DNA from: an uncultured Acidobacteriota bacterium
GTDB lineage: Bacteria; Acidobacteriota; Vicinamibacteria; Vicinamibacterales; 2-12-FULL-66-21
Direction of reading: 5' to 3'
Length of the DNA stretch: 64,000 nucleotides
NCBI GenBank assembly: GCA_963786615.1
Contig: CAWAZT010000014.1
Span: 438,344 to 502,343, forward strand
Position numbers and translations under genes: made by a program. The notes below the pieces were generated by a model that was not told the DNA's origin, made no database searches, and worked only from the letters and a program-made list of their open reading frames with translations. Below are positions 31,050 through 64,000 of the stretch, piece by piece. The first letter of the stretch is position 1; the number at the start of each line of letters is the position of its first letter.

Positions 31050-31951
31050 TCACTGTTCGTGCGCTGCGTGTCGGCAAGCTGGCGATGAACGCGTGCACCT
31101 CGCGAAGGACCTGTGCTTCCCGGGTGATCCAGAGATAGTGCCCGCCGCCAGGGACGTCGACGAAGCGCGCGTCGCGGACGTTGCGTTTCGCCTTGTCGAT
31201 CCAGCGGCTGACGATCACGCGGCCGCGCTCCACGAATTGTTCGATGAGCGCGCGGTCCTCTTCGCTCTTCGGGTGATAGTCATCCGGAAAGTCGAGGCAG
31301 CTCCAGCATCACAAGAGCAGCGGCACGCCGGACGTTCGAGTAATCCTTCCGATAGACCTGTTGCTGCCCGATCGGCTCGCATCACCCAGCCGGGCGCCGT
31401 CGGCTGGCCCACGCCGCCGTTGACGTCTCCGAACTGATTGCGCAGCTCCGATTCAGGAAATGTGAACCCGATCGAGCAGGCGAGTGACTTCTGAAACGCC
31501 GGGAAAGAAGTGCGGTCCATGGGTGGCAGACTGGCCGCGGACGGAGATCGGGCGGCATCTTCTGCTGGAGCGCCGCCCATTCCTTGTCGGCGGGCGGATC
31601 GTCCTCGAGGTCGGCGATTGCGTCGAGATAGACGAGGCCCGCGAGCCGGTCGGAGTGCTGCCGGCCCACGGTCGTCATCTCGCCCCCGGCCATCGAGTGA
31701 CCGATGAGCACGGGCTTCTGAATCTTCGCTCACCTCAATCGCACGAAATACATCGTCGGCCAGGCGTTGGTCGTCATAACCCGACGCGGGCCGGCTCGAC
31801 ACGCCGAAGCCGCGCCGCGTGATGCCGTACACGTGACAGCAGTCGGTGAGCTTTGGGGCGAAGCGTCGTACACGTGCGCCGTGTGCCCGGATCCCGTGAG
31901 CAGCACGACGGGTTGTCCTGAGCCGCCCCAGTCGAGAACCTCCAGTTGCAC
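31050..31951 (-). CDS. Alpha/beta-fold hydrolase (>=3 frameshifts; boundaries approximate)
   Basis: Fragments: MQLEVLDWGGSGQPVVLLTGSGHTAHVYD (31730..31951), nucleophile elbow LIGHSMAGGEMTTVGRQHSDRLAGLVYLDA (31382..31711), C-terminus RFVDVPGGGHYLWITREAQVLREVHAFIA (30610..31233); a possible signal peptide IVVLALTLALVAW lies just upstream. Confidence 0.5.
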
Positions 31952-32119
31952 GCCGCTGGTCCACCGTCACGAAGCGGACCTCGTGCTTCGAGAGGGTCGC
32001 GCCACTCGTCGCTGCTGCGGCCTGCCGGGTGCTGACGATCGAGATCCGCCAGGCCACCAGGGCGAGCGTGAGCGCCAGCACGACGATCGATGCATCAGGC
32101 TCCTCGTCAGGTACGCGTC

Positions 32120-33088
32120 CGTTACTCGATTTTCGTTGCGCGTTGTGACCAGGCTCGTCGGAGCCCGTCAGGCTCGACTGACGCAGCGCGGCGGCGCCCA
32201 TCAATCCGCCCATCCCCATCGATTCGACGGCGCTGCTCGGAATCAACATCAGCGCGCCTTTCTCCTTCAAGCCCTCGTAGAGCATGTTCATCGCGCGCAG
32301 ATGGAGCGCGGTAGGGTTGTGCAGGTACGACTTCGACGCTTCCTCGAACGAGTGCGCGATTTCCAGCTCGGCCTGACCGAGGATGATGCGCGCCTGTTTC
32401 TCGCGCGCGGCCTGCGCCTCGCGCGACATCGCGTCCTGCAGCGAGTCCGGGATGACGACGTCGCGCATCTCGACCGACTGCACCGTCACGCCCCACGGGG
32501 TCGATCGCTGATCGATCAGCTTCTGCAGCTCCTCCTCGATCCGCTCGCGTCCTTTCAGGAGATCGCCGAGCGATGTGCGGCCGATGATGTCGCGCAGCGC
32601 CGTCTGTGCCGCCCAGCTGACGGCCTGCTGGTACTCCTGAACTTCGAGCGCTGCTTTCTCCGGGTCGTAGACCAGCCAGAACAAGACGGCGTCGACGTTG
32701 ACGGGAACGGTATCGGACGTCAGCGTCTGCTCGGCGGCGAAGCTCGTCGTGATCACCCGTTGATCGACCCAGCGCGTCACGCACATCCACGAACGGCATG
32801 ATCCAGAAGAGGCCGGGTCCACGCAGGCCGACGTACCGGCCGAGGCGCAGGACGACCGCGCGCTCCCATTGCTGCGCGATCTTTGGCGCCTGCGCGAGCG
32901 ATGAAGCCGAGCGCGAAGCCGATGAGGACCGGCCACGGGCTGGCGGCTCGGATCGTTCCCGCGAGCCCGAGTCCGAGCGGGATCAGCATCAGCGCGACCG
33001 AGACGATGTTCGTCCGCGTCTCTCGTGTCACCGATTCCTGGGTCGTGCGTCTCCCGGACAACGGCAAGATCACTTGGGCCACGGTCAT
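32120..33088 (-). CDS. SPFH/band-7 (stomatin/QmcA-like) membrane protein (>=2 frameshifts; 3' end approximate)
   Basis: N-terminal TM IVSVALMLIPLGLGLAGTIRAASPWPVLIGFALGFIARAGAK (32777..33088); SPFH core VNVDAVLFWLVYDPEKAALEVQEYQQAVSWAAQTALRDIIGRTSLGDLL...PWGVTVQSVEMRDVVIPDSLQDAMSREAQAAREKQARIILGQAE (31215..33254 frame). Start ATG overlaps the gntR stop (ATGA). Confidence 0.6.
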
Positions 33089-33486
33089 GCTCCTTGTTGG
33101 CGCCGCCCCTCGATCTCCGGCAGCGCGTCGTCCACGCTGAAGCCATGGGTCGAGAGGTCGGCGAGAAAGCGGTCGATGAGCCGGCGCAGCTCGGATTGCC
33201 TCGCCGTCGCGTCGGGGCGACGAGGTCGGCCTGCAGCGCCACGAAGGTGCCCACCCCGCGCCGGGTTTCGAGGACCCGTGCGCGCTCGAGGTGGGCGTAG
33301 ACCTTGGCGACGGTATTCGCGTTGACCCGGAGGTCGACTGCCAGCTGTCTGACGGTCGGGAGCTGGTCGCCCGTGCGCAGGCGCCCGGCGGCGATCGCCG
33401 CGAGGATGCCCCGCTCGAGCTGCGCGTGCAGCGGCGTCGCGTCGCTGCGAGTCGATCGCGAATCCGTCCCAGGGGCTCACAAGCAT
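33085..33486 (-). CDS. GntR-family (YhcF-like, HTH only) transcriptional regulator (one frameshift at ~33440)
   Basis: Hand translation: ...IDSQRRDA|TPLHAQLERGILAAIAAGRLRTGDQLPTVRQLAVDLRVNANTVAKVYAHLERARVLETRRGVGTFVA (winged-helix GntR signature); C-terminal tail in ORF 33085..33516. Confidence 0.6.
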   Translation of the reverse strand: MLVSPWDGFAIDSQRRDAAARAARAGHPRGDRRRAPAHGRPAPDRQTAGSRPPGQREYRRQGLRPPRARTGPRNPARGGHLRGAAGRPRRPDATARQSELRRLIDRFLADLSTHGFSVDDALPEIEGRRQQGA

Positions 33487-33489
33487 CAA

Positions 33490-33509
33490 TGTACTACTAC
33501 AATAGTACA
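33490..33509. promoter_or_regulatory. Perfect inverted repeat TGTACTA-N6-TAGTACA overlapping a TTGACA-17nt-TACATT promoter directly upstream of the GntR gene (putative autoregulatory operator)
   Basis: Minus strand reads caacTTGACAttgtactattgtagtagTACATTgATGctt; forward tgtactactacaatagtaca at 33490-33509. Confidence 0.5.
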
Positions 33510-33522
33510 ATGTCAAGTTGGG

Positions 33523-33657
33523 GTCAGACCCCGTTAAACGGGCGCACTATCTATGGACTTATGGTGATGGGACCACAAGGCCTGGTGACGCCAGCTGCCG
33601 GATTGGGGTCAGACCCCAATCCAGCGTGCGTTGACGCCTGGTGGGGTCAGACCCCAC
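33523..33657. repeat. Three copies of the 13-bp perfect palindrome GGGGTCAGACCCC between the glmS stop and the GntR promoter
   Basis: ttGGGGTCAGACCCCgtt (~33523), attGGGGTCAGACCCCaat (~33603), tggtGGGGTCAGACCCCacg (~33645); spacings ~80 and ~42 bp. Confidence 0.7.
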
Positions 33658-33662
33658 GAGCT

Positions 33663-35506
<1,844 letters not shown>

Positions 35507-47589: not shown

Positions 47590-47680
47590 TGGAGGGGTGG
47601 CCGAGTGGTTGAAGGCGGCGGTCTTGAAAACCGCTGTACGGGGAACCGTACCGTGGGTTCGAATCCCACCTCCTCCGCCA
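47590..47680 (+). tRNA. tRNA-Ser (anticodon TGA)
   Basis: GGAGGGGTGGCCGAGTGGTTGAAGGCGGCGGTCTTGAAAACCGCTGTACGGGGAACCGTACCGTGGGTTCGAATCCCACCTCCTCCGCCA folds as a class II tRNA: 7-bp acceptor, 3-bp D stem, anticodon loop CTTGAAA, long variable arm, T-loop GGTTCGAATCC, encoded CCA. Confidence 0.9.
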
Positions 47681-48685: not shown

Positions 48686-49971
48686 ATGCACCGAGCCGAC
48701 TCAGTCGGATCTGGTCGGCCGTCGGGCCTCACCCTCACGCAGCAAATCATCCTCGGCCTCATCGTTGGCGTAGCCGTCGGCGCGCTGATCAGCCGGACCC
48801 ATCCCGACTGGGCAACGTTCTTCAGCCCGTTCAGCCAGCTGTTTCTCCGGCTGATCAAGATGATCATCGCGCCGTTGATCTTCGGCACGCTGGTGGCGGG
48901 CGTGGCGGGCGCCGGTCACGTGAAGGTCGTCGGCCGCATGGGCCTCCGGGCCATGATCTATTTCGAGGCGGTCACCACCGTCGCGCTGGTGATCGGCTTG
49001 CTCGCCGTGAACCTGCTCAGGCCGGGCGTCGGCCTCGTGCTTCCGGCGTCGGCGGGCGCCCCGGAAGTTGCTGCGCACGCCCAGACGTGGGATCAGATCC
49101 TGCTCCACACCGTCCCGAACTCGATCGTGCAGGCCATGGCCGAGGGAGACGTTCTGCAGATCGTCGTGTGGTCGTTGATTTTCGCGATCGCGCTCACGAT
49201 GGTCGGGCCCAAGGGACGGCCGGTCGATCGAGCTCTGCGAGTCGCTGGCGGAAACGATGTTCAAGTTCACGAACATCGTCATGAAGTACGCGCCCATCGG
49301 CGTGGCTGCAGCGATGGCCTACACGATCGGCAAGGGCGGCTTCGGCGTTCTGTACAATCTCGCCTGGCTCGTGGGCACGTTCTACATCGCGCTGGCCGCG
49401 TTCTACCTGCTCGTGCTCGTTCCCGTCATGCTGCTGTTCCGCGTCCCCATTCGCAAATTCATCAAGGCCGTGAAGGAACCGGCCGTGATCGCGTTTTCGA
49501 CGACCTCGAGCGAGGCCGCGCTGCCGCGGGCGATGGAAGCGATGGAACATCTCGGCGTGCCGCGAAGCGTTGTCGCTTTCGTTCTGCCGCTCGGCTACAG
49601 CTTCAACCTCGACGGATCCACCCTCTACCTCTCGCTGGCCGCGGTGTTCGTCGCGCAGGCCGCCAATGTTGCATCTGAGCATCGGCGAGCAGATCACGTT
49701 GCTCCTGACGTTGATGCTCACGAGCAAGGGTGTGGCCGGTGTTCCGCGGGCGTCGCTGGTGATCCTCGCCGCGACGGTGGCGAGCTACCGGCTGCCGCTC
49801 GAAGGCGTCACGCTGATTCTTGGCGTCGACACGCTGATGGACATGGGCCGCACCATGACGAACGTGATTGGCAACTGCCTCGCGTCGGTGGTGGTGGCGC
49901 GGTGGGAAGGCGTGTTCACGGAAGCCAGCGATCGCGAGCTGGAGCTGGCGGCGGTCCGGGGCGAAATCTGA
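48686..49971 (+). CDS. Dicarboxylate/amino acid:cation symporter (DAACS; DctA/GltP family; 2 frameshifts)
   Basis: ...[17 protein letters not shown]...[23 protein letters not shown]... (48686 frame); ...[20 protein letters not shown]...[12 protein letters not shown] (49257 frame); ...[25 protein letters not shown]...[28 protein letters not shown] (49570..49971). Confidence 0.75.
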
Positions 49972-49975
49972 GCGC

Positions 49976-51889
49976 ATGGGATACGGTCTGACGTCCCGGC
50001 GGAAACGCCGGTTCAAGCTGTGGTTCTTCGAGGGACTGCGGGAAACGGGCGTGATGATGGCCGCTCATCATCAAGCGCCCTGGTGGAAGGTGATGTGCCT
50101 GACGGGCGTCGATTATTTTTCGACGCTCGGCTATCAACCAGGCATTGCCTTTCTGGCGGCCGGCCTGCTGTCGCCCGTCGCGACGTTGATCCTCGTTCTG
50201 CTGACCCTCTTCGGCGCACTGCCAATTTACAAGCGCGTCGCTGAGGCGAGCCCCAATGGACAGGGCAGCATCGCGATGCTCGAGGATCTGCTTCCGCGGT
50301 GGAAGGGCAAGGCCGTCGTGTTGTGCCTGCTTGGCTTTGCCGCAACCGACTTCGTGATCACGATCACGCTGTCGGCGGCCGACGCCACCGCACACATCGT
50401 CGGCAACCCCTTCGTGCCGGAAACCTTCAATCATCCGATCGCCCTGACGCTCATTCTGCTGACTGCGCTGGCGGCCGTCTTTCTGAAGGGCTTCAAGGAA
50501 GCGATCGACTTCGCCGTCGTCATCGTGGGCATCTACCTTGTTCTGAACGTGGTGGTGATCGGGTACGCGCTTGCGCATGTGGTCCAGCACCCCGGCGTGC
50601 TGCCCGCATGGCGGGACGCGCTCCTCAGTCAGCAGGGCAGCCCGCTGATGATGGTCGCGCTCGCGCTGCTGTTGTTCCCGAAGCTTGCGCTCGGGCTCTC
50701 GGGGTTCGAGACCGGTGTGGCCGTGATGCCGCTCGTGAAGGGCGATCCCACCGATACCCCCGAGCGTCCCGTCGGGCGCATTCGTAACACGAAGAAGCTG
50801 CTGCGCACGGCCGCGGTTCTGATGAGCGTCTTCCTGATCGGCAGCTCGTTGTCGACGACGTTGCTGATACCGCCGGCGGAGTTCCGGGAAGGCGGACAGG
50901 CCTGGGGCCGCGCGCTCGCCTATCTCGCGCACCTCTATCTCGGCGAGGTGTTCGGCACGATCTACGACGTGAGCACCATCTCGATCCTGTGGTTCGCCGG
51001 CGCCTCCGCGCTGGCTGGCCTGCTCAATCTCGTGCCGCGGTACCTGCCCCGTTATGGCATGGCGCCCGAGTGGACGAAAGCGACGCGTCCACTCGTGCTC
51101 CTGTTCACGGCAATCACGTACTTCATTACCATCCTCTTCACAGCCAACGTCGAGGCACAAGGCGGCGCCTATGCGACCGGCGTTCTCGTGCTCATGACCT
51201 CGGCCGCCGTTGCTGTCACGCTGCATCTGCGCCGATCGCGCTTTGCGTTCGGGTTCGGGACGATCACGCTGGTGTTCGTCTACACGACCGTCGTCAACAT
51301 CTTCGAGCGGCCGGAAGGCATCAAGATCGCGTCCTGGTTCATCGTCACCATCATCGCGACGTCGCTGATCTCGCGCGTGCTCAGATCGACGGAACTGCGG
51401 ATTCAGGGCGTGGTGCCGGATGCGATGGCGGAGGGCTTCCTTCGCGACGTCGGTCATCGCCCGGTGCGGCTCATTGCCAACCGGCCGGATGTGGGGAATC
51501 CTGAGGAGTACGCCAGCAAGCTGCGCGAGGCGCGCGAGTCGCATCACCTTCCTCTCGACGAGCCGGTGCTGTTTCTCGAAGTGCGTCCTGGCGACGTGTC
51601 CGATTTCCGCGGGACGCTCCAGGTCGCGGGAGCGGATGTCGCGGGGCATCACGTGCTTCGGTGTGTGAGCCCGGCCATCCCTAACGCGATCGCGGGCCTG
51701 CTGCTGTTCATCCGGGATCGCACCGGCCAGATCCCGCACGCGTACTTCGGATGGACCGAAGGAAATCCGATCGTCTACCTTCTGAAGTTCCTGGCGTTCG
51801 GGGAGGGGGACACGGCGCCCGTGACGCGCGAGGTGCTCCGGCAGACCGAGCAGGACCCGATGCGCCGGCCGAGGATTCACGTCGGCTGA
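49976..51889 (+). CDS. APC-superfamily permease with cytoplasmic C-terminal domain (KimA/YdaO-like, possible K+ transporter)
   Basis: 638-aa intact ORF from the internal ATG at 49976; ~12 TM segments; [15 protein letters not shown] resembles the KimA LSSDALSSVAYGTE motif; ~150-aa soluble tail. Confidence 0.55.
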
Positions 51890-51894
51890 GGCGG

Positions 51895-53191
51895 TCACTC
51901 CACGAGCGATACGGCGGCCTCGTCCACGCCGCGACCTTTCACCGCCGTCACGTCGAAACGCAACCGCTCGTACCGGACCGAATCACCGACCCGAGGTGGA
52001 CGGCCGAGCAGCGCGAGCACAAGACCGCTGACGCTGTCGACCTCCTCATGGGCCAGGTCCAAATCGAAGAAGCGCCCGACCGCATCGAGGCGCATCGTGC
52101 CAGGCACCCGCAGGCTGCCCATGGGATCCCACTGCGGTCCTGCTGCCGCCGTCGGCCCCTCGTCAATCTCGCCCACGACCTCCTCGAACGAGGTCTTCGA
52201 GCGTGACGATTCCGGCCGTGCCGCCGTGCTCGTCGATCACGACGGCCATCTGCGTGCGCTCACGCCGCATCGTGCTCAGCACGTCGTCGAGCAGCGACGT
52301 CTCGGGGACGACAGGAACCTGCCGGACACCCGCGGCGGAAACGGGTTGGCCGATGAGCAGCAGCCGCAACAGATCCTTGATGTGATACATGCCGACGATG
52401 TGATCGAGATCGCCTTCATACACGGGATAGCGAGTATGCGGCGCCACCCGCAGAAGGGCGCGAAGCTCCTCGGGGCTCGAGCCAACAGGGATTCCGGAAA
52501 TGCGTACGCGCGGAACCATGACCTCGCCCGCTGTCCGATCGCCGAAGGCGAACAGCTCGCGCAGCATCTGGCCCGCGTCCTCGCGGAGCGCGCCCTGTTC
52601 TTCTGATTCCTGAACGATCAGCTGCAGCTCTTCGGACGTGTAGTACTGGTCGGTGTTCCGCGCCTGCCGGCTGATGCCGGCAATTTTCAGCACGCGATTG
52701 CCGATGGCGTTCAGCAGAACCACGAGCGGCAGCAGGATCGTCTGGAGCCACAGCATCGGCGGCGTGATCCAGAGGACGATCTGCTCGGCGTCACTCAGCG
52801 CGAGCGACTTTGGCACCATCTCGCCGAGGACGATGTGGAAGTAGGTGAGGATCGCGAGCGCGACGAGGCTCGCGAACCCGTGGGCGGCCAGCCATTGCGC
52901 CAAGGCCGCACGCCCGAGCGCCCGCGCCAGGATCCAGTCTGCGAGCACGTGCTCGCCGTACATGCCCAGGCCGAGGCTCGCGACGGTGATGCCGATCTGC
53001 GCGGTCGCGATGTACCGATCGACTCTGCGCGGGTCGCGCAGGACGCTCTGCACGAGCCGCGCGAGCGGCTGCTTCCGAGCGGCGCGTGCGTCGATCGCCG
53101 CCCGCGGCGCGCCGACGATGGCGAATTCCGCGGCGACGAAAACGGCGTTGAGCACGATCAACACGGCGATGATCAGGAGCGGGATCGCCAC
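51895..53191 (-). CDS. CorC/HlyC (TlyC-like) transporter-associated protein: DUF21 + CBS pair + CorC_HlyC (one frameshift at ~52180)
   Basis: ...IPLLIIAVLIVLNAVFVAAEFAIVGAPRAAID...LGEMVPKSLAL... CBS ...VVIDEHGGTAGIVTLEDLV (52163..53224); CorC_HlyC C-terminus ...VSGLVLALLGRPPRVGDSVRYERLRFDVTAVKGRGV (51895..52176). Confidence 0.7.
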
Positions 53192-53192
53192 G

Positions 53193-54499
53193 TTACGCCT
53201 CGACCTCCTGCGGAGGAGACACAATGAGCGAGGCGATCTGGTCGTTTTCCACGGCCTCGATCTCGACCGCGAGGCCGCGAACGGTGAGCTCCTCGCCGGG
53301 CTCGGGAAGCCTGCCGGCCTCGTGCAGCACGAACTCGCCGACCGTGCCGCCGTCCTGCGGCCAGGCGCCGTCGATCCACACCCGGGCGCGATCGAGGGGA
53401 AACGCTCCTGGCAGCCTGACGCGTCCGTCAGTCAGGCGCAGCGGCAGCAGCCGCTGACCCTTGAGCTCGTCGGCCACGTTCCCGAGCAGCTCGCCGAGCA
53501 CGTCCTCGAGTGTGATGAGACCCGCGACACGGCCCGCACGATCGGCCACAATCGCCTGATGGCTCCGCCGCTCGCGCAGAAAGGCGAGCAGCCGATCGGC
53601 CGGCATGGTGTCGGGCACTCGAGGAATCGGCCGTACGAGCGTCGCAAGCGATCCCGCGGCTCCTTGATCGACGAAGTGCAGCACCGCATCTTTCGTATGC
53701 AGGATGCCGACGATATCGTCGAGCGTGTTGCGGAAGAGCGGGAGGCGACTGTAAGGGCTCGACGCGACGACGCGCATCACATCAGGCATGGCCGTCGCGA
53801 GGTCGAGCGCAGCCAGGCGTTCACGCGGCACCATCAGCTGACGGGCGTTTCGCAGGCCGAGCCTGAGCGCACGATGCAGCCGCACCTGCTCCTGCGGCTC
53901 GAGCAGGCCGCCGTCGCGACTCTCGGCGATGAGGAGCGCAATCTCCTCGGGTGAATGCACGTGACGATGACCCGTGCTCGGGAGCCGGAGCGCACGCAGG
54001 ATGACGAGCGCGCTGCCGTTGAGGAGCGCAATCAGCCAGGCGTACGCGCGAAGCGACCACTCCATCGGAAGCAACGGTGAACAGTGCCGCCTGGGTTGGA
54101 TACTGCAGCGCGATCGCCTTCGGCACGAGCTCGCCGAGGATGACCGACAGGACCGTGAGCACGACGAGAAAGATGGCCGCCGAGACCTCGAGGGCCGTGT
54201 GCTCGTCGAGCCGCGTCCAGCGCGTCAGGAGCGGCGTGGCCCACGGGGCCAGGATGGCGCGCGCATACGCGCCGAGAATCAGGCTGGAGAGCGTGATGCC
54301 GACCTGGGAGGCGGCGATATAGCGATCGAGCGCGGCGCGGCGAATCGAGGACAGGCAGCAGGCGCGCCGCGAGCGGACTGCCGTCCTCGGCCATCCGTCG
54401 CAACCGGCTCCGGCGGGCGCCAACAGCAGCGAACTCGGCCGCTACATACAGCGCCGTGAGCGCGATGAGCAGCAGGATGACGCCCGCAGCCACCAGCAT
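53193..54499 (-). CDS. Second CorC/HlyC (DUF21-CBS-CorC_HlyC) paralogue (2 frameshifts)
   Basis: MLVAAGVILLLIALTALYVAAEFAAVGARRSRL (54032..54604 frame), ...ILGELVPKAIALQY (53821..54423), CBS plus CorC_HlyC ...QAIVADRAGRVAGLITLEDVLGELLG...LTVRGLAVEIEAVEND (53193..54074). Confidence 0.65.
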
Positions 54500-54611
54500 G
54501 CCGACAAATCGTACTTGATCGCGGCGCGCCGCGTTTACGTGAGGGGTGCCGCGCGGCGGGCAGCTCTGCCTGCACAGAGCGAGCCACATCCATCGTGGCG
54601 CCAAGCACTTA

Positions 54612-57038
54612 CAGTCTGATCACTCCGCCCGCAGGGCGACCGCGGGATCCACCCGTGTCGCTCGCAGGCCAGGTACCGACTGCGGCTGCAGCGGCGATCA
54701 CCGCCAGGAGAGTGGCGACCAGCGCGAACGTCACAGGATCGGTCGGACGCACCCCGTAGAGCAGGTTGCGCATCAACCCGGTCAGGAGCGCCGCACCGAC
54801 CCCGCCGATCAGGATGCCCGCGGCCGCGAGCGTCAGTGCCTGACGAAGCACCATCGACAGCACGTCGGATTGGCGTGCGCCGAGCGCCATGCGAATGCCG
54901 ATCTCCTGGGTGCGCTGCGAGACCGTGTAGCTGATCACGCCGTAGATGCCGACGGCGGCGAGCAGCAGCGCGATACCCGCAAACACTCCCAGCAGCATCG
55001 TCGTCAGCCGCCGTTGCGCGACCGAGGTGTCGCGAACCTCGGTCATCGTGCGCACGTCAGCGACGGGCACGTTTGGATCGAGCTCGTGCACGCGCGCCGT
55101 TGCAGCCGGGACGATGGCGCTGACTTCTCCTGCCGCGCGGATGGCGACCGTCATCCAGGGATAGGCGAACCGTGCAGGAGGCCAGTAGATCGACGGCCGG
55201 ACTTCCTTTTCGAGCGTCTCCTGCCGGACGTCGCCCACGACGCCGATGATTTCGTCCGGACCCGGATCGTTCCAGTACACGGAAATCCGCTGGCCGATCG
55301 GATCCTCGTTGGGCCAGTACTTCCTCGCCATGCTCTCGCTGATGATGACCTTTCGTGCTGTGGCCCCGCGCTCTTCGGCGCCGAACAACCGGCCGCGCAC
55401 CAGGCGGATTCCCATCGCGCGGAAGAAGTCGTGCGTGACTACGCGGACGTCGGTCACCGGTTCCTGGCCGACCGGCGGTTTCGGGCGCCCGATGATTTCG
55501 AAGTCCGTCGCAGCGCCAAGACCGTTCAACGGCAGGAAGCTCGTTCCGCCCGCAGCTTGCACACCGGGGATCGCGTCGATCTGCTCGAAGAGCTGGTCGT
55601 AGAAGCCGCGAATCTTCTGGGGCGTTTCGTACTTCGATTGGGGAATCGAGACCCGCATCGTGATCGTGTGGGACGGATCGAATCCGGGGTCCACGCTGAG
55701 AAGAGCGCTGAAGCTGCGGATCAGCAGGCCCGCGCCGACCAGCAGCACGAGCGCGAGTGCCACTTCGACCACGACGAACGCGTTCCGGGCACGAGCGCCA
55801 CGAGCGCCCGTACCTCCGCGTCCGCCTTCCTTGAGTGCGTCCGTCAGCGTGGTCCGCGCCGCCGTGAGGGCCGGGAAGAGTCCGAACGCAAGGCCGCTGA
55901 CGAGCGTTGCGACGAGCGTGAACACCAGCACACGCGAATCGACGGTGACAGCCTCGAGCCGAGGAATCGGCAGTTGTTTCGCGACGACGCTCCGCAGACC
56001 AAGCGTCGTCCACCATGCGAACAGCAGACCCGCGGCACCGCCCGTGGTGGACAGCAACAGACTCTCGGCGAGGAGTTGTCGGACGAGTCGTCCACGCCCG
56101 GCGCCGAGCGCCGCGCGCACCGCGATCTCGCGATGACGCGCCGTCGCGCGCGCGAGCAGCAAATTCGCCACGTTCGCACACGCGATGAGCAGCACGAATC
56201 CCACCGCGACGAGCAGGACGAACAACGCCGGCCGCACGTCACCGGTCAGCTGATCGGTCAGGCTCACGACCCTGGCGCTCCAGCCGGTGTTGAAGTCAGG
56301 AAACATCCGCGTCAGCTCCGCGTGAACCCGTGTCATATCCTCCTGCGCCTGGGCAACCGTGATTCCCGGTCGCATCCGTGCGACGGTCATGAGCCAGCGG
56401 CCGCGAGGCGTACGGGCATCGGGTTTGAACCCGATCGTCTGCCAGATATCGATCGTCCTGTCGAGAATCGAAAACCCTGGCGGCATCACGCCGATCACGA
56501 TTTGCGACCGGCCGTCGAGTTGAATGGGCTGATTGATGATCTTCGGGTCCGCACCGAAGCGTCGCCGCCAGAGCCCGTCGCTGATCATCACGACGTTCGC
56601 GGACGGGTCGTCGTCTCCCGGCTGGAACAATCGTCCCTGTTGCGGCGGCACGCCCATGATGGGAGACACCGCCGCTGTGACGTATTGCACCGGAAGTTCT
56701 TCCGGCGCGCCGCCGCCGCCCGTGATGGTGGTCTTGAACGTCAGGCTGACCGCCGCAATGTCCTCGAACGAATGGTTCATCTCGCGCCAGTGCAGGAAGT
56801 TGCCGGGCGAGACGACGTTGTCCTTGCGGTCGGTCGGCAGGTGGTGCTCCCACACGATGACGAGCTTCGACGGATCCTTGTAGGGAAGCGGTTCGAGCAG
56901 CAGCGTGTTGACGACGCTGAAAATCGCCGTGTTCGCGCCGATCCCGAGCGTCAACGCCGCGAGTGCGATGCACGTGAATCCCGGCGAGCGAAGCAGCAGG
57001 CGCGCGGCGAACCGGAGGTCCTGCCAGAGGACGGCCAT
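54612..57038 (-). CDS. MacB/FtsX-type duplicated permease, copy 2 (single frameshift at the extreme C-terminus, ~54665)
   Basis: ...[52 protein letters not shown]...; two FtsX domains; correct C-terminus [19 protein letters not shown] by a 1-nt shift; ATG 5 nt after the copy-3 stop. Confidence 0.8.
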
Positions 57039-57042
57039 GGCG

Positions 57043-59514
57043 CTATTCACTCCTGAGAACGGTCAGCGGGTCGACGCGTGACGCCCATCGCGCGGGCACG
57101 ACGGTCGCCGCCGTCGCGACGACGACGAAAAATACCGCGACGCTGACAAAGGTGAGCGGATCCGTGGCGGTCACGCCAAACAACAGCGTCCGCAACACGC
57201 GTGTGAAAGCGAAGGCCGCGCCGAGACCGAGCACGAGGCCGCTCAGCGTCAGCACAGCGCCATCGCGCAGGACGAGCCGGAGGACCGTTCCCGGTCCGGC
57301 GCCGAGCGCCATGCGAATCCCGATTTCCTGGCGCCGCCGCGCAACGCGATAGCTCAGCATCCCGTGGATGCCGATACCGGCAAGCAGCAGGCCAGTCGCC
57401 GCGAACGCCCCGAGCAGCATCATGATGAACCGACGTTGCGAGACCGATCGCGAGAGCGTCACGTCCAGCGGCTCCAGCCCGAACACCGCAAGCCCGGGAT
57501 CAACCGCACGAATCGTCGATCGCACGGACCCGGCGAGCCCGGACGGATCGCCGCTGGTGCGAACGAGCAGCACGCCGGCGCCGTTTGCGGACGGCGTCTG
57601 CGACAACGGTGTGTACGCGGCGATGGGAGCGGATTCGACCAGGCCATGGAATCGCTCGTTCGCGACGACGCCGACGATCGTGCGTGAGGTTCCCCAGAAG
57701 CGGATCTGATGGCCGAGCGGATCGGTCTTTCCGAAGAACCGCTGTGCCGCCGTCTCGTTGAGCAGAATCACCGGCGCGCTGGTTGTGGTGTCGCCCGGCT
57801 CGATGAGTCGTCCGCGTACGAGCGCCAGGCCGACGGTGCGGAAGTAGCCGCTCGTCACACGGCGGACGGAAATCTCCGGCCATGTGCGCGACTCGGCTTC
57901 GCGCCCGACGACCGCGAAGGAATTGGTGAAGCCGGGATCCAGCGGGTGGTTCCCGGCGATGGCCGCGGATTCGACACCCGGCAAGGCTTCAGCGCGCGCG
58001 AGGAGCGCGCGATCGAACGCATGCTGTTCTCGAAAATCGGGCCATCGGCGGAAATCGACCGGGTAGCGCGCGGGCGGAAGCTGGAACTCCGCCTTGAGGA
58101 CGCCGTGCGACTGGAACCCCGGGTCCACGGCTTGCAGCCGCCAGAAGCTCTTGATCAGCAATCCGGCGCTGCACACGAGAAGCAGCGCGAGCGCCAGCTC
58201 CGCCACGACAAGGCTCTGCTGCAGGCGTCCGCTTCCGCGACTCGCGGATGCGCGGACGGTCGCGTCCTTCAGCGGATCCTGTGTCGAGAACCGCTCCAGG
58301 TGAATCGAGGGGATGATGCCGAACAGAAAAGCGACAACGATGGACACGCCCGCGGTGACTGCGAGCACCGCAGGATCGACCGCCGCGGCGTCGAGGCGTG
58401 GCACGTCGGCCGGTGCAAGCGCGACGATCGCGCGGACACCCAGGAAGGCGAGCCCCACGCCGATCGCGCTGGCGGTTGCCGTGAGCACCGCGCTTTCGGT
58501 GACGAAGAGTCGCAGCAGCGTCGCGCCGCCTGCTCCAAGCGCCCGGCGAACAGCCACTTCGTGCGCACGCGTGTCGCCACGCGCGAGCAGCAGGTTGGCC
58601 ACATTGACGCAGGCGACGATCAGCACGAGGGCGACAGTGGCAAGCAGGACGTACAGCGCGGGCCGTACCGGCCCGAAGATCACCCGCGTCAGCGACTCGA
58701 CGTTCGTTCCGCGCGCCGCATTGTCCGGAAAGCTCTTCTCGAGGTCCGCGGCGATGGCACCGATTTCCGCCTGCGCCGCGCCGATCGTCGCGGCCGGCGC
58801 GAGCCTGCCGATCATCAGCAAGGGATGAGTAGAGCGCGGCAACTGCGCCGCGTCACCCTGCAGCGGCAGCCAGATGTCCACCTGCGCGCGTTCGCCGCGA
58901 TCGGCAAATGCGCGCCCGTAGGCGGCAGACGTGAGGACCTGCAGAATCCCGAAATCAGCCTCTGGCGGCATCACCCCGACAATGGTCCATGGCGTGTCGT
59001 CGAGCCGCAGCGTGCGTCCGATCGCTCCAGGATCGCGCCTGAACTCGCGCTGCCAGAGCGCGTCACTGATCAGCGCGACCGCAGGTCCGCTCTTCGCATC
59101 CTCGGCGGGCGTGAACACGCGGCCTGCGATGGGCTTGATGCCGAGCAATGGAATCAGCTCGTGCGATGCATGCAGCACCGGCACGCGCCGCGGATCGCCC
59201 TGCCCGGGACTCAGGTTCATCTCGTCGGCGATGAACCCGCCCATCGCGGCCATCGTCCGCGACTGCCGCTGAATGTCTTGAAAGTCCGGCCAGGATCCCG
59301 GCTCGCGCGTCGTCCCCGTGTTGCGATCGGTCTCCCACACAACCGCAAGACGTTCGGGTTCCGAAAACGGCGGCGGCGCGAGCAGCACGGCGTGGACGAC
59401 GCTGAAGATCGCGGTGTTGGCGGCAATCCCCAGCGCAATCGTCGCAATGACCACGATGGTGAAGAGGGGGGCCTTCAGGAGTGACCGGACGGCGAAGCGC
59501 AGGTCAGATAGCAC
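57043..59514 (-). CDS. MacB/FtsX-type duplicated permease, copy 3 (intact, 823 aa)
   Basis: [50 protein letters not shown]...ends ...[16 protein letters not shown]; same architecture as copies 1 and 2. Confidence 0.85.
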
Positions 59515-59520
59515 GGGGCA

Positions 59521-59640
59521 GCTCCTCTGGTCCCGAGTCCCAAGTCCGACGGTCCAGCAGTCTCTAGCCGAGTCAGCAGCCTGGGAAGTCTGGACTTGGA
59601 CGCGGGACTCGTGACCAGCGACTCAGGACCTGGGACTACG
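59521..59640. repeat. Imperfect palindrome made of short GGGACT / AGTCCC-type units between permease copy 3 and the upstream HEAT-repeat gene
   Basis: ggtcccgagtcccaagtccgacggtccag ... ctggacttggacgcgggactcgtgaccagcgactcaggacctgggactacggacttgcgac. Confidence 0.6.
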
Positions 59641-60508
59641 GACTTGCGACCACCCGCCGATGGCGCCGAGCGCCCAGGCGGCCTGGCGGCGGACGCGCGC
59701 GTCGGTGTCTTTCAGCGACTTCGCAAGCGGCGCGGAGGCTCGGTGATCTCCGATCGCGCCCAATGCCCACGCGGCCTGTTCCCGCACCGACGCCACATCG
59801 TCGCCCAGGGCCGCGACCAGCGCGTCGACGGCGCCGCGATCGCCGATCGCGCCCAGTGCCCACGCCGCCTGATGGCGGGCTTTCGCGTCGGCATCCTTCA
59901 GCAGCGCCGACAGCGACGGCACCGCTCGGCGATCGCCGATGGCGCCCAGGGCCCATGCCGCCTGCTCACGAACGGCGGGTTCGGCATCCTTCAACGCGTC
60001 GATCAGCGCGGGCACCGCGACGTCGGCGTCGAGCGCGCCCAGCGCCCACGCGCTCTCCTTTCTGACGGCCGCCTCTCCGTCGTGCAGCGATCCCGAGAGG
60101 AGCGGCGCGGCGTCGCGATTTCCCAGCGCGCCGAGTCCCCATGCGGCGTTCTTTCGCGCGATCCAGACGGGCGCTTTCAGCGCACGCGTCAAGGGATCGT
60201 ACGCGGGACGACCGATCGCCACCAGCGCGGAGGCGGCCTGCTCGCCGGGCGACGTCGTGTCGGCGATGCCGGAGTGCCGTCCCCACGTCCGCTCACCGCA
60301 GACGTTGCCGTCAACAGGTGATCCGTCCCCGAGCAGCGCGACGAGCTGCGGTAGCGCAAAAGCGGCGTTGCTTCCGAACTCCCGCAAGTCGCACGCCGCC
60401 CGCGCGCGCGTCGGCCGGGTCGGACGAGGCCAGCCCCGCAGCCTTCGTCCGCGCGTCGCCCTGGACCGGGGCAAGGGCAATCGCACCGGCGATGATCACG
60501 GCGATCAT
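59623..60508 (-). CDS. HEAT-repeat (PBS-lyase HEAT-like) protein with N-terminal signal peptide (one frameshift at ~60490)
   Basis: Signal/TM (V)MIAVIIAGAIALAPVQG (60311..60511 frame) joins >=6 repeats of ...AAWALGAIGDRRAVP.L...LKD.... (59623..60486); GTGATGA start overlaps the upstream gene stop. Confidence 0.6.
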
Positions 60509-61245
60509 CACCGAATCCTCATGTTGTGGAATCCCATGGGATTCGGATTCGGATTCGGGTTTGGATTGGGGTTCGGGTGTGGATGCGGATGGGGATGCGG
60601 GTGCGGGTGTGGAGACGAATGGCCATCCCCGTCACCGCCGAGATCCGCGATCGCGGCCGCGGCGGCGCGGCGGATGCCGGCATCCTCATCCTTCAGCGCC
60701 TGCGTGAGGGCGTCCATGGCGCGCATGTCTCCAATCTCGCCGAGCGCGCTGATCACATGACGCCGGACGTCGGGACTCTTGTCCTTGCTTGCGGCGATCA
60801 ACGCGTCCACGGCGCTGCGGTCACCGATTTCGCCGAGCGCCGACGCGGCGTGCGCGCGAATGGCCGCCGATTCGTCCTTGAGCGCGTTCGCCAGCGCGGC
60901 GGTCGCGCGTGAATCGGACAGCTCGCCAAGCGCGCTGATGATCTGGGCTCTGACCTCAGGGTCGGCATCGCCGAGCGCGGCCGCGAGCGCGGGCACCGCG
61001 CGCGCGTTGCCCAGCTCCGCGAGCGAGTTCGCCGCCTGGCGTCTGACGCCGGCGTCAGGATCCTTGAGGAGCCCGATCAGGCCATCGACGGCGGCTTCGG
61101 CTGGTGCCTGTTGCGCGCCAACGACCCCTTGCGACGCGGCTCGCCATTCGAGCGGCGGATGCAGGAACATGGCGGCCACGCCTAGGAAGATGGCGCTCGC
61201 CCGACGCAGCGTGCGGAAGAAGACAGTCACGGGGCTCATGAGCAA
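60508..61245 (-). CDS. Secreted HEAT-repeat protein with C-terminal (HP)6(NP)6 low-complexity tail
   Basis: 245-aa intact ORF: signal peptide MLMSPVTVFFRTLRRASAIFLGVAAMFL, five HEAT-like repeats (AANSLAELGNARAVPALAAALGDADPEVR...), ending GDGDGHSSPHPHPHPHPHPHPNPNPNPNPNPNPMGFHNMRIR. Confidence 0.65.
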   Translation of the reverse strand: MLMSPVTVFFRTLRRASAIFLGVAAMFLHPPLEWRAASQGVVGAQQAPAEAAVDGLIGLLKDPDAGVRRQAANSLAELGNARAVPALAAALGDADPEVRAQIISALGELSDSRATAALANALKDESAAIRAHAASALGEIGDRSAVDALIAASKDKSPDVRRHVISALGEIGDMRAMDALTQALKDEDAGIRRAAAAAIADLGGDGDGHSSPHPHPHPHPHPHPNPNPNPNPNPNPMGFHNMRIR

Positions 61246-61323
61246 CTCCTGCTAAGAAACCAGCACCAACGAGAACACCATCACCGCGGATCGCCCGACG
61301 GCGATCGATGGGGCGCGCGGCGT

Positions 61324-62238
61324 TTACCGGATTTGTCCCAGAGCGAACGCGGCCTGCTGACGAACAGAGGCGTTGGCGTCCTTGAGCGCAGCGGTCAGCG
61401 CGTCGATCGCGCGTGCATCGCGAATCTGCCCGAGCGCAAACGCGGTCTGCTCGCGCACGTCGACGTTGGCGTCCTTCATCGCGATCACCAGCGCCTCGAC
61501 GGCGCGCGAGTCGCGCAGCTGTCCGAGCGCGAACGCGGCCTGCTCGCGCACGTCGGGCTTGGCGTCCTTCAGCGCCGCGATCAGCGGATCGACCGCACGG
61601 CGATCGCGGATCTGCCCGAGTGCGAACGCGGCCTGCTCGCGGACGCTGTCGTTCGCGTCGTGCAGCGCGCCAGCCAGCGCGTCAACCGACGAGACGTCGC
61701 GGATCTGTCCGAGCGCGAAGACCACTTGTTCCCGCACGTCGGCGTTGACTGTCCTTGAGTGCCGCCGCCAGCGCGCCCACCGCGGACTTGGCTCTGATTT
61801 GTCCGAGCGCGAACGCCGCCTGCTCGCGGACGTCAGCGCTCGCATCCTGGAGCGCCGCCGTCAGGGGGTCGACCGCGCGCTGATCACGAAGCTGGCCGAG
61901 GCCGAACGCCGCCTGCTGGCGGATGTTTGCATCGGCGTCTTTCAACGCCGACGTCAGCGGTTCGTACACTCGCGGATCGCGCATCTGCGTCAGGGCAGAG
62001 AGTGCGGTCTCGCGGACTTCCTTGTCGGAATCCTTGAGCGCTTCGATCAGCGCGCTGACGGTCCGCGGATCGTTCGCGTGCGACCGCTCCTTCTCCTCAC
62101 CCTGTGCGGCCGCGGCGTCGGCCACATGTCCGGCCACGCTCTCGACCATGCTGCCGACGACGCCAGCGGCCATGCCGGTGCCGACGCCGGTCGCGATGCC
62201 TTGCGACACGCCCTGCGCGACGCCTTGTCCGACTTCCA
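61324..62238 (-). CDS. HEAT-repeat protein (one frameshift at ~61760), Gly-rich N-terminus; possibly the C-terminal domain of the upstream M56 protein
   Basis: MEVGQGVAQGVSQGIATGVGTGMAAGVVGSMVESVAGHVAD... then ...ALIEALKDSDKEVRETALSALTQMRDPRVYEPLTSALKDADANIRQQAAFGLGQLRDQRAVDPL... (61682..62239) continuing in 61324..61845. Confidence 0.55.
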
Positions 62239-63505
62239 TGCGACATCCCCTCGGCCACGGCGTGGGGCATTTCCTTGCCGGCCGTGTGCCACTCCGACTC
62301 CGGGACTTTCGCGCTCATCGGTGACGTCGCGGGCGCCGGCGCCGGGGTCGGCGCCTCCGCTGACGGTGCAGGTATCGGTTGCGGAGTCTGCGCGGAGGCC
62401 GGAATCGGCACGACGTCCGCGGTTTTCACGGCCGCGCGCTCCTCGGCCCAGGGCTGCACCGACGCAACCGGGACCAGCACGACGGCGAACACGCCCGCAG
62501 CAATGGCCGCACGAAGGCGCGTGAGACCGCGGCGAGGTACGGTCGGATCGAGAATCGCGATCAGCCGTCCCTCGAGTTGGGAGCGATGCGCCATCGCGAG
62601 TGAGGCGCCGGCGAGGACGGCGGGGAAGCGGCCCGGCGTTCATGACGCGCGCAATTTCCAGCAATTGATTCGCGTAATCAGCGCCGCGCGTGCCGGCGGC
62701 AAGGACGAGATCGTCGCACGCACGCTCGCGCTCCGCCCGGAGTCGACGAACGGCCATCCACGCCAGCGGATTGAACCAGTACGCCGCGCACGCCAGCTGC
62801 GCGAAGAGGTGCGTCAGGCAGTCGCGGCGCTTCACGTGTGCGAGCTCGTGCAGCAGCACGATGCGCAGCCGCTCATCGGGCCAGCTGTCGGCGTCCGCCG
62901 GCATCAGCACGGACGGACGCAGGATGCCCCACGCCATCGGCATGGAGGCCGCTCCGGTGCGGAGAAAACGAACGCGCGAGAGGCCGAGATCGCGCGCCAA
63001 CTCCCGCGCCTGCGCCAGCCAGGGCGCGTCGGTCACGAGCGCCGTGCGACGCGACATCCATTGGACGGCGACGAGTCCCACGAGCATGCGGCCGATGATC
63101 AGGAGCGCCCCGATCGACCAGATCAGCAGCAGGGACGTTGACCAGCTCGGAAGCGCGCGCACCGTGCTGCGTCGGCTTCGGAGGGTCCCGTGCCCGCAAC
63201 CGCATCGTTCGTCGTCGTCGGCGTCCGGTGATGCGCAATCGCGGGTGGCGCCGGCGCCGGAGTCGTCGCGGGCGGTGTGCGCGACCGTCTCGGTGCTGAA
63301 CCGGACCAGCGGCACTTCCCAGCGAGGAAGCGCCAGCGCGAGCGCCGGGACGATCAGCGCGCCCATCAGCCCGAGCGTCCAGATCATGTGGCGTGCGGCC
63401 GCCGACGCGCGCCGGAGCACCGTCGCGATCAGCCCGGTCGCCGCCAGGATGAGAGAGGCCTTGACGATGGCGTCGAGGATCGACAGTTTGCTGTAACGCG
63501 TGCAT
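62239..63505 (-). CDS. BlaR1/MecR1-like M56-family peptidase signal transducer (frameshifted; C-terminal boundary uncertain)
   Basis: N-terminal TMs LSILDAIVKASLILAATGLIATVLRRASAAARHMIWTLGLMGALIVPALALALP...; metalloprotease motif RIVLLHELAHVKRRDCLTHLFAQLACAAYWFNPLAWMAVRRLRAERERACDD; then TM plus Pro-rich linker (AVVLVPVASV...PIPASAQTPQPIPAPSAEAPTPAPAPA) in frame 62097..62594. Confidence 0.7.
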
Positions 63506-63507
63506 CA

Positions 63508-63873
63508 CTACACCCCGCTCTTCCGCGCGCCGTCGATCAGCGTCGCCAGGCGGTCGAGCTCGTCGTTCGACAGCCGCGTGGAGGGCTCGTCGAGCAGGGC
63601 CGAGATCGCCTGCTCCGCGGAGCCATCGAAAAAGGTTTGAAGGATATGGCGGAGCGCCGAGCGCTTCGCGTTGTCGCGTGCCACCGTAGGGAGATAGACG
63701 TAACGGGGCCCGTCTTGTTCGTGGCGGATGTGGCCCTTCTCTTCCAGAATACGCAACAGCGCGCGTACGGCGGAGTAGCTCGGCGGTTCAGGCAGGTCTG
63801 TCTGCACCTCGGCGGCGGTGGCGCGCCCCTTCTGGTAGAGGATGTCGAGAATCTGCCGTTCCCGGCGACTCAA
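63508..63873 (-). CDS. BlaI/MecI/CopY-family transcriptional repressor
   Basis: 121-aa intact ORF MSRRERQILDILYQKGRATAAEVQTDLPEPPSYSAVRALLRILEEKGHIRHEQDGPRYVYLPTVARDNAKRSALRHILQTFFDG; its stop (TAG) is 2 nt from the M56 gene start. Confidence 0.8.
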   Translation of the reverse strand: MSRRERQILDILYQKGRATAAEVQTDLPEPPSYSAVRALLRILEEKGHIRHEQDGPRYVYLPTVARDNAKRSALRHILQTFFDGSAEQAISALLDEPSTRLSNDELDRLATLIDGARKSGV

Positions 63874-63951
63874 ATCGCGATGATGCGGTTGTGGTCATAT
63901 ATGGTCCGTCAGCCTTGGTCTCGAAGGCTTAGACGGAGCCCGGACCGAAAA

Positions 63952-63971
63952 GGTGCTACGAAAATAGCACC
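63952..63971. promoter_or_regulatory. Inverted repeat GGTGCTA-N6-TAGCACC ~80 bp upstream of the BlaI-like repressor gene (candidate operator)
   Basis: aaaGGTGCTAcgaaaaTAGCACCggg, with a further half-site-like tTTAGCAAC 10 bp away; the half-site is the same as the 9-mer unit of the gyrB-gyrA palindromic array. Confidence 0.5.
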
Positions 63972-64000
63972 GGGCTGAAAATTTAGCAACACGTGGGGTC

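Follow-up and report, generated by a model that had tools for sequence, protein, structure and literature searches.

A putative BlaI/M56 signalling operon with a HEAT-repeat sensor and duplicated orphan permeases in an uncultured Acidobacteriota bacterium

A stretch of 64,000 nucleotides (nt) from an uncultured bacterium of the Vicinamibacterales (assembly GCA_963786615.1, contig CAWAZT010000014.1, positions 438,344 to 502,343 of the forward strand) was analyzed for a candidate regulatory gene cluster. This whole stretch is called the window below, and positions are counted from its first letter. An earlier sequence-only reading, made by a model without database searches, had proposed a co-directional module of a BlaI repressor, an M56 sensor protease, HEAT-repeat proteins, and two MacB-like permeases. 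Every gene that it named was found on the minus strand between 54609 and 63898. We read the region, with a probability of roughly 0.6 and on comparative sequence evidence, as a signalling operon of the BlaI/BlaR1 regulated-proteolysis type with a new sensor and new outputs. The cluster built around the fused M56-HEAT protein is real, conserved, and abundant in soil Acidobacteriota.

The genes had to be reconstructed because the M56 reading frame switches frame four times in a three-frame translation. A metagenomic contig (L001) with 92% DNA identity over 4.7 kb carries the genes intact, and compared with it all frame breaks were single inserted bases in non-homopolymer context. The insertions lay in blaI (63883, a T), in the M56 gene (63480, 62635, 62233, and 61748), in the spacer (61314 and 61241), and in HEAT3 (60411), at a rate of about 1 per 600 nt where the window aligns to this contig. 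Deleting these eight bases gave uninterrupted genes for BlaI, M56-HEAT, HEAT2, and HEAT3. ADOP2 has a further C-terminal frameshift near 54675; its canonical end lies in the neighboring frame, and its true stop is the TGA at 54622-54620. The downstream CNNM genes (51895-54604) were also split by frameshifts, and glmS (33647-33800) was frameshifted too, with its conserved C-terminus out of frame. Because intergenic DNA and the housekeeping gene glmS contain such insertions too, they were read as sequence errors rather than as decay of the locus. They look like the errors of an uncorrected long-read assembly, and any reading of the window based on open reading frames (ORFs) should allow for frameshifts; overlapping long ORFs on the same strand suggest further, unconfirmed ones elsewhere in the window. 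Programmed frameshifting was rejected: no insertion falls at a slippery or homopolymer site, and L001, with its 92% identity, lacks them all.

Once its four insertions had been removed, the M56 gene encoded a single polypeptide of 725 amino acids (aa), which settled whether the M56 and HEAT ORFs belong together. The reconstructed protein was 88% identical to protein P0001 with 100% of the length covered. PF05569 and HEAT domains stood together in all 120 clusters among the matches listed (686-831 aa), the named clusters among these being Vicinamibacterales. Because the reconstruction reads through and the relatives carry both domains, the Gly-rich HEAT-repeat ORF that had been listed as a gene of its own (61682-62239) is instead the linker and part of the sensor of the M56 protein. 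Together with the ORF at 61324-61845 it makes up the C-terminal half of this protein. Thus, the HEAT ORFs of the sequence-only reading were real, whereas its count of three HEAT proteins came down to two separate ones. The corrected features are as follows, where ADOP stands for "Acidobacterial duplicated orphan permease".

63973-63988: degenerate tandem copy of box 1
63961-63989, minus strand: putative blaI promoter, read from the sequence and conserved in the alignment
63953-63970, minus strand: box 1 (BlaI box), perfect palindrome GTGCTA-TTTTCG-TAGCAC 5' of blaI
63508-63898, minus strand: blaI, winged-helix repressor of the BlaI/MecI/CopY family, 129 aa after correction (PF03965)
61324-63505, minus strand: M56-HEAT, single 725-aa membrane protein starting at ATG 63505 (PF05569 and HEAT)
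61289-61306, minus strand: GC-rich hairpin GATCGCC-GTCG-GGCGATC, with the M56-HEAT stop on one side and box 2 on the other
61249-61266, minus strand: box 2 (BlaI box), GTGCTgGTTTCTTAGCAg, 5' of HEAT2 and overlapping its AGGAG ribosome-binding site
60508-61239, minus strand: HEAT2, 243 aa, secreted or membrane-anchored, with an (HP)6(NP)6 tail (PF13646)
59623-60508, minus strand: HEAT3, 294 aa, with a signal peptide and two invariant cysteines
57043-59514, minus strand: ADOP1, duplicated FtsX/MacB_PCD permease of 823 aa, clade B (TIGR03434)
54620-57038, minus strand: ADOP2, ADOP permease of about 806 aa, clade A (TIGR03434)
51895-54499, minus strand: CNNM/CBS/CorC_HlyC pair (about 54499-53193 and 53224-51895), both genes frameshift-split (Pfam)

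The reported 2-nt TAG..ATG junction corresponds to the blaI/M56 boundary, and the reported GTGATGA overlap to the HEAT2/HEAT3 junction, at which the HEAT3 ATG overlaps the HEAT2 stop (TGATG). The gap between the permeases is 4 nt, with ADOP1 ending at TAG 57045-57043 and ADOP2 most likely starting at ATG 57038. ADOP1 starts 108 nt after HEAT3. The cluster runs past 54612, where the first interval had ended, into the CNNM/CBS/CorC genes at 54499-51895.

The protease part of M56-HEAT matched PF05569 (E = 7.4e-28; 98 bits, cut-off 31), in agreement with the M56 protease and HELAH motif seen before, and the protein belongs to peptidase family M56. Four transmembrane (TM) helices were recognized by hydropathy at residues 12-30, 41-59, about 124-145, and 332-350, and K and R are frequent in the loops at 31-40 and 146-331, as the positive-inside rule expects of cytoplasmic loops. 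The zinc protease motif HELAH/ExxxD is thereby placed in the cytoplasmic loop between TM3 and TM4. Both HELAH and E-R-A-C-D (ExxxD; ERERACDD) were invariant in 12 and in 40 family members. The same holds for two juxtamembrane segments, LPRWE following TM2 and QPW (QPWAEE) following TM4. In BlaR1, the N-terminus lies outside, the protease loop inside, and the C-terminus outside (PMC7593790). As the TM map of M56-HEAT matches this topology, the same arrangement is likely, and the HEAT domain is predicted to be periplasmic.

The AlphaFold2 model had a mean predicted local distance difference test score (pLDDT) of 74 and a confident M56 bundle. It contained a disordered linker of about 115 residues (355-470), Pro-rich and Gln/Gly-rich, and a solenoid of about eight 31-residue HEAT repeats (approximately 61324-62090) with pLDDT above 90. 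The two juxtamembrane segments were modelled as adjacent beta-strands and offer a plausible signal path. By both sequence and fold, the solenoid was closest to alphaRep structures (Foldseek target-normalised template-modelling scores 0.84-0.91). AlphaReps are artificial binders derived from PBS-lyase HEAT-like repeats, and the solenoid belongs to these repeats (PF03130/PF13646). The phycobilin lyase equivalogs CpcE/F and NblB all scored far under their cut-offs (NblB 76.7 bits vs 300). A Foldseek search of the full model against the PDB gave only alphaRep, armadillo, and HEAT structures, and because the HEAT domain swamped the M56 part in this search, the evidence for a BlaR1 fold is that of sequence profiles. 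The sequence match to BlaR1 8exs was weak.

The protein is very probably not a beta-lactam sensor of the BlaR1/MecR1 kind, its C-terminus being made of HEAT repeats. The NCBIfam model blaR1_generic (NF000326) gave 91.7 bits against a cut-off of 400 and aligned at model positions 100-253 of 585 only. No transpeptidase or penicillin-binding domain of Pfam was found on the M56-HEAT fragments at E <= 0.01, a search that did not extend to the SxxK motif itself. The suggestion that HEAT repeats had replaced the penicillin-binding sensor therefore holds for the corrected protein, in which they are fused to the M56 protease, and the canonical transpeptidase domain that would have spoken against it did not appear in this Pfam search.

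The repressor gene encodes 129 aa from ATG 63898 and matched PF03965 at E = 1.4e-27 (96.7 bits, cut-off 22.6; profile positions 2-114 of 115), which confirmed the assignment to the BlaI family. The protein aligned end to end with the crystal structures of MecI (1sd6/1okr) and BlaI (1sd4). Its fold and the operator palindrome at its own putative promoter place it in the BlaI/MecI/CopY family, and it falls outside the narrower NCBIfam groups BlaI_of_BCL and MecI (35.3 and 17.2 bits vs cut-offs of 180 and 250). CopY-like direct metal sensing (TIGR02698) was rejected, since the score was 47.7 bits vs 121.95 and the protein has no cysteine that could form a CxCxxxxCxC site.

Box 1 is a perfect 6+6 palindrome 55 nt 5' of the blaI ATG and was invariant in six loci with differing surrounding sequence. 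It overlaps the putative -10 element TATTTT (63966-63961), which lies at a 17-nt spacer from the putative -35 element TTGCTA (63989-63984); this promoter has 8/12 consensus matches and remained under the threshold of the promoter scan. The window contained five box matches at <=2 mismatches vs 0.49 expected. For the wider comparison, 85 loci (1.58 Mb) were assembled from five contigs found by protein look-ups and 80 found by a scan of GTDB species representatives, and all were searched for the core TGCTA-N6-TAGCA with one mismatch allowed. There were 152 matches vs about 16 expected by chance, the latter being a rough estimate from base composition. Nearly all matches lay either 5' of blaI or in the gap after M56-HEAT and before HEAT2. 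Almost all of the 85 loci, in every phylum, had the motif ahead of blaI regardless of which C-terminal domain the M56 partner carries, and in 27 loci it occupied the box 2 position, between the M56-HEAT stop and HEAT2. The box 2 core TGCT-N7-TAGCAG was kept in 6/6 aligned loci. This distribution suggests two BlaI-controlled units, and TGCTA-N6-TAGCA seems to serve this clade of BlaI proteins as a general operator.

The boxes at blaI were often tandem, 19-21 or about 44 nt apart, with an AT-rich N6. They preceded BlaI-M56 pairs in metagenome-assembled genomes labelled Acidobacteriota, Gemmatimonadota, Rhodothermales, Planctomycetota, and Latescibacterota. One contig (L005 3927-8995; also L003 3158-6166) carries a second BlaI gene paired with an M56-TonB_C gene and its own box variant, GTACTAGTTAAATAGGAC. 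On L005 this pair adjoins a PadR-ADOP pair, so that both arrangements occur on one contig. A further box-like palindrome of the window, GTACTACTACAATAGTAC (33491-33508, 2 mismatches), lies between glmS and the minus-strand ORF 31215-33254, with no BlaI gene nearby.

A GC-rich hairpin was present between the M56-HEAT stop and box 2 in every locus examined. It was followed by a U-run in four loci (L013, L039, L076, and L022), while the hairpin of the window (61289-61306) was weak, with no U-run and z = -1.44. The terminator scan missed the hairpins before box 2, apparently because a G-T extension of the stem consumes the U-run, and these regions were folded instead. The same scan called box 1 a terminator; as box 1 is a conserved operator, this call was taken to be false. 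Box 2 was also considered as an RNA hairpin masking the ribosome-binding site; this was rejected, as only 4-5 base pairs would form and the sequence matches the blaI DNA operator.

To follow the gene order, BlaI, M56, HEAT, and ADOP were mapped on the loci with phmmer. The five looked-up contigs carried BlaI, M56-HEAT, a protein of about 250 aa, a HEAT protein, and an ADOP permease on one strand, with differing flanks. An ADOP start lay on the same strand within <=600 nt downstream in 31 of the 56 assessable M56-HEAT loci vs 0/18 M56 loci without HEAT (Fisher p = 1.2e-5). The gap before these linked ADOP genes was often 5-33 nt. Linked loci were labelled Vicinamibacteria/Vicinamibacterales, Terriglobia (L023 and L036), Blastocatellia (L030), and Solibacteraceae (L075). 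ADOP gene equivalents elsewhere amounted to only about 13/51 in the 1.58 Mb, and therefore chance adjacency is about 0.3% per site. The gene order is thus conserved in other Acidobacteriota, in these 31 loci and across three classes, and the loss of synteny that would have counted against the module was not what we found. No paper on an M56-HEAT sensor or on the ADOP/CNNM linkage was found in the literature searched, in keeping with the earlier remark that this is not a described system.

Other neighborhoods of the sensor were also recorded. Outside Acidobacteriota, M56-HEAT was followed by DUF5916/CBM9-like proteins in Gemmatimonadota (L057 13005-15248; L080 12945-15383), and an ABC ATPase followed it at L026 13487-14251. 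Apparently, the HEAT sensor has been put to use with more than one kind of output. In a sub-family of Vicinamibacteria (L025, L050, L052, L055, and L058), the order was HEAT, BlaI, M56-HEAT, with no ADOP downstream and with boxes in front of the upstream HEAT gene.

The two separate HEAT proteins are paralogues of the sensor domain, their repeats being 48-50% identical to its own. The repeat signatures differ, that of the sensor being QAAFALGQ, that of HEAT3 QAAWALGA, and that of HEAT2 SALGEIG. Pfam confirmed the HEAT-repeat ORFs, with HEAT/PBS-HEAT repeats throughout four ORF fragments, including the one with the (HP)6(NP)6 tail, which is HEAT2 (PF13646, 2.1e-57). HEAT2 begins with an N-terminal hydrophobic segment, and this segment and the PHPHPHP...PNPNPNP tail were retained in all of its orthologues (57-96% identity). 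A Tat signal (TLRRAS) in HEAT2 was rejected, as the orthologues have TLLKSS. The X-Pro tail resembles a part of TonB, its stiff (EP)n(KP)n rod.

Both permeases contain two stretches each of PF12704 (MacB_PCD) and PF02687 (FtsX), as expected of the duplicated permeases noted earlier, and have eight hydrophobic segments. The term MacB-like was right for these domains, and the family is ADOP, since TIGR03434 ("ADOP family duplicated permease") gave 829.6 bits for ADOP1 and 961.4 bits for ADOP2 vs a cut-off of 622.3. The MacB model (NF007826) matched the permease part only (73 and 109 bits vs 966), and the fused nucleotide-binding domain of MacB is missing. Neither LSGGQ nor the Walker A motif GxxGxGK[ST]T occurred in any frame of the 64-kb window, which agrees with the claim that no ATPase gene is adjacent, and no adjacent ABC ATPase was found among the called genes of related loci. 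Thus, these permeases are orphans in the sense of the family name. In a neighbor-joining tree, the module-linked ADOPs formed two clades: clade A with ADOP2 of the window and its orthologue, the single ADOP of most loci, and clade B with ADOP1. Other ADOPs of the same contigs, including those adjacent to PadR genes (L003 and L005), fell outside both clades save for two (L022 and L035), which branch at the base of clade A.

The spacer between HEAT3 and ADOP1 (59527-59650) contains scattered GGGAC/GTCCC motifs. At L001 5290-5340 they have grown into tandem (GGGACGT)n copies, which are missing from the window and leave a gap of 25 nt in the alignment.

Both CNNM genes, on frameshifted pieces, matched PF01595 (DUF21), PF00571, and PF03471 and belong to the CNNM/CorC family. 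In 19 related loci such a pair came after ADOP, co-directional with it, and in two loci without ADOP (L024 and L039) it stood directly behind the HEAT genes. It probably belongs to the same cluster. Behind the pair, at 49868-51898, both strands carry a long open frame (about 660-673 aa) that Pfam did not recognize; in L003 the equivalent place is taken by a gene of 640 aa, likewise unmatched in Pfam. An Rfam search of 51000-64000 gave zero matches. The sole tRNA of the window is a tRNA-Ser (anticodon TGA) at 47591-47680 on the plus strand.

The mechanism proposed for this cluster follows regulated proteolysis by BlaI/BlaR1, which is established (PMC7593790). At rest, BlaI dimers would occupy both boxes and repress two units, blaI-M56HEAT and, as the putative second unit, HEAT2-HEAT3-ADOP(-ADOP)-CNNM-CNNM. 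The HEAT solenoid of the sensor would be engaged by a ligand in the periplasm or by another protein, for which the soluble HEAT proteins and the ADOP periplasmic domains are candidates. The signal would reach the zinc protease in the cytoplasm by way of TM4 and the LPRWE/QPWAEE juxtamembrane strands, and cleavage of BlaI by the protease would derepress both units. The induced HEAT proteins might then bind the same ligand as the sensor, and the ADOP and CNNM transporters might remove or counteract it. BlaZ, the output enzyme of the bla system, and the sensor BlaR1 have a common ligand, and because the outputs here include paralogues of the sensor domain, ligand sequestration or co-reception is suggested by analogy. 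Possible ligands are a peptide or protein, or a divalent metal at the His-Pro tail. HEAT/alphaRep surfaces bind proteins or peptides, and the His-Pro tail together with the CorC-type cation exporters gives a hint of divalent metals.

A bolder form of this proposal, which we put forward only tentatively, is a new receptor class, in which a periplasmic HEAT solenoid switches a cytoplasmic M56 protease, the HEAT paralogues act as co-receptors or sinks, and ADOP and CNNM are the effectors. Equally tentative within it is the nature of the ligand, which could be a peptide, a protein, or a metal, with one HEAT paralogue ending either in an X-Pro rod like that of TonB or in a tail whose many His residues bind metal.

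Several findings weigh against the signalling operon as proposed. The scissile bond of S. aureus BlaI is N101-F102, and it is not kept in the repressor of the window, which has A-L-L-D at the aligned position. Box 2 overlaps a ribosome-binding site, and the promoter scan found no sigma-70-like promoter near it, so it could act as a roadblock rather than as a promoter operator. In some loci lacking ADOP, the genes that follow are DUF5916/CBM9, an ABC ATPase, or just CNNM. Since HEAT repeats bind proteins generically, they do not pinpoint a ligand. We know of no ATPase partner for ADOP, and its transport activity is therefore an assumption; no published test of ADOP function was found in the literature searched, which held only passing mentions of the family name. 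The word export in the sequence-only reading is accordingly an assumption drawn from the MacB/FtsX family. The permeases had also been named as the controlled output. Box 2 precedes HEAT2 and not the permeases, whose control we infer from co-orientation, tight spacing in relatives, and co-inheritance; the likely output set also takes in the two HEAT proteins and the CNNM/CorC pair.

These points leave room for a narrower explanation, rather unlikely in our judgment, in which control by BlaI and M56-HEAT extends no further than their own genes and those of the two secreted HEAT proteins, and ADOP and CNNM are conserved neighbors under separate regulation. No BlaI box was found 5' of ADOP at <=2 mismatches in any locus, and the spacer before ADOP is 108 nt in the window and up to 250 nt in some relatives; for these reasons co-transcription of the permeases can only be deduced. 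The downstream ADOP is also missing in 25/56 M56-HEAT loci, and ADOP genes are usually paired with PadR regulators, which adjoin them in L003 and L005. However, same-strand spacing is 5-33 nt at many loci, the association recurs in three acidobacterial classes with unrelated flanks, and the linked ADOPs form dedicated clades. The terminator scan gave no terminator-like site between HEAT3 and ADOP1. Furthermore, ADOP directly follows M56-HEAT in L014, L019, and L047, where neither a second box nor a separate HEAT gene was detected between them, and in L013 and L021 a single short HEAT gene with box 2 before it stands ahead of ADOP. The roles within the cluster could also be distributed differently: the HEAT proteins would be structural adaptors that couple the M56 protease to ADOP, the permease would be the true sensor, and the protease would report transporter activity or envelope or cation stress. 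MacB/FtsX-type permeases are known as mechanotransmitters and flux sensors, as BceAB signals to BceS and FtsEX acts through EnvC. Three HEAT paralogues with distinct signatures co-occur with large periplasmic ADOP domains, and HEAT/alphaRep solenoids are protein-protein binders. This arrangement is nevertheless unlikely, as many M56-HEAT loci have no ADOP, which implies that the sensor can work without it.

Two further explanations would deny the cluster either a function or its novelty. Given that 4.4 kb contain eight or more single-base insertions, frameshifting or intergenic, it might be a decaying pseudogene cluster with real frameshifts and nothing functional in this organism. This is very improbable, as insertions also occur in intergenic DNA and glmS, the CNNM genes are split too, the sequence outside the insertions is 92% identical to an intact metagenomic locus, and a related locus from another assembly (L002) has similarly split genes. 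A conventional beta-lactam-sensing BlaR1/BlaI resistance system is what automatic names would imply (Joint Genome Institute, "beta-lactamase regulating signal transducer"), and blaR1_generic does match the protease part. We give this hardly any credence: that match stays far below the cut-off and within residues 100-253 of the model, the Pfam search (SxxK itself not being searched) gave no transpeptidase domain on any fragment, and the cluster contains no beta-lactamase or penicillin-binding protein gene.

The proposed signalling operon can be set beside several known systems. As in BlaI/BlaR1 and MecI/MecR1 (Staphylococcus aureus, Bacillus licheniformis; MEROPS M56), a winged-helix repressor adjoins a four-TM HExxH/ExxxD protease with an extracytoplasmic C-terminal domain, a palindromic operator lies over the promoter, and the regulated genes would include relatives of the sensor domain. 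Unlike BlaR1/MecR1, the C-terminal domain is an alphaRep-type HEAT solenoid on a disordered linker and not a domain resembling class D beta-lactamases. The order here is blaI and then the protease, the operator is TGCTA-N6-TAGCA where theirs is TACA/TGTA, and a second box lies co-directionally downstream. The likely outputs differ as well, being HEAT proteins, ADOP permeases, and CNNM transporters, and the N-F cleavage site is not shared.

Atypical BlaIR pairs without a penicillin sensor control other regulons in M. tuberculosis (Rv1846c/Rv1845c), M. abscessus, and P. aeruginosa (PvmSR) (bioRxiv 10.64898/2026.08.03.742534). The present cluster resembles them in combining an M56 protease and a BlaI-family repressor without a beta-lactam-sensing domain. 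Their proteases have no C-terminal sensor domain, whereas the one here is large and conserved and is accompanied by secreted paralogues and transporters. The M56-TonB_C fusions of Bacteroidota and Acidobacteriota (for example L005 3927-5974) share the BlaI and M56 core and the same box type; they carry TonB_C instead of HEAT, and no linked ADOP clade was seen downstream on the same strand.

ADOP1 and ADOP2 have the duplicated MacB_PCD and FtsX architecture of their family and its lack of an adjacent ATPase, and differ from its usual members in being linked to BlaI/M56-HEAT rather than PadR and in forming two linkage-specific clades. The type VII ABC systems MacB, BceAB, and FtsEX likewise have a permease of the FtsX fold whose periplasmic domain is large, and that of BceAB and FtsEX has a role in signalling or activates partners in the periplasm. 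Unlike these systems, the cluster has no fused or adjacent nucleotide-binding domain and no histidine kinase, and the candidate partners are the HEAT proteins and the M56 protease.

Taken with the known systems, these results suggest an M56 protease core that is paired with interchangeable periplasmic sensors, namely a penicillin-binding domain, TonB_C, HEAT repeats, or none, and one operator type, TGCTA-N6-TAGCA, that may be common to the BlaI-M56 pairs of several phyla. Genes labelled "beta-lactamase regulating signal transducer" should not be taken as antibiotic-resistance genes in soil resistome surveys on that label. The Acidobacteriota, Vicinamibacteria included, rank among the most abundant bacteria of soils, and their genomes contain many ADOP "orphan" permeases. 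Two ADOP clades appear here to be tied to a recognizable signalling switch and a sharply defined operator motif. If the new receptor class is real, it would provide the first regulatory and functional entry point to the large ADOP family of soil Acidobacteriota.

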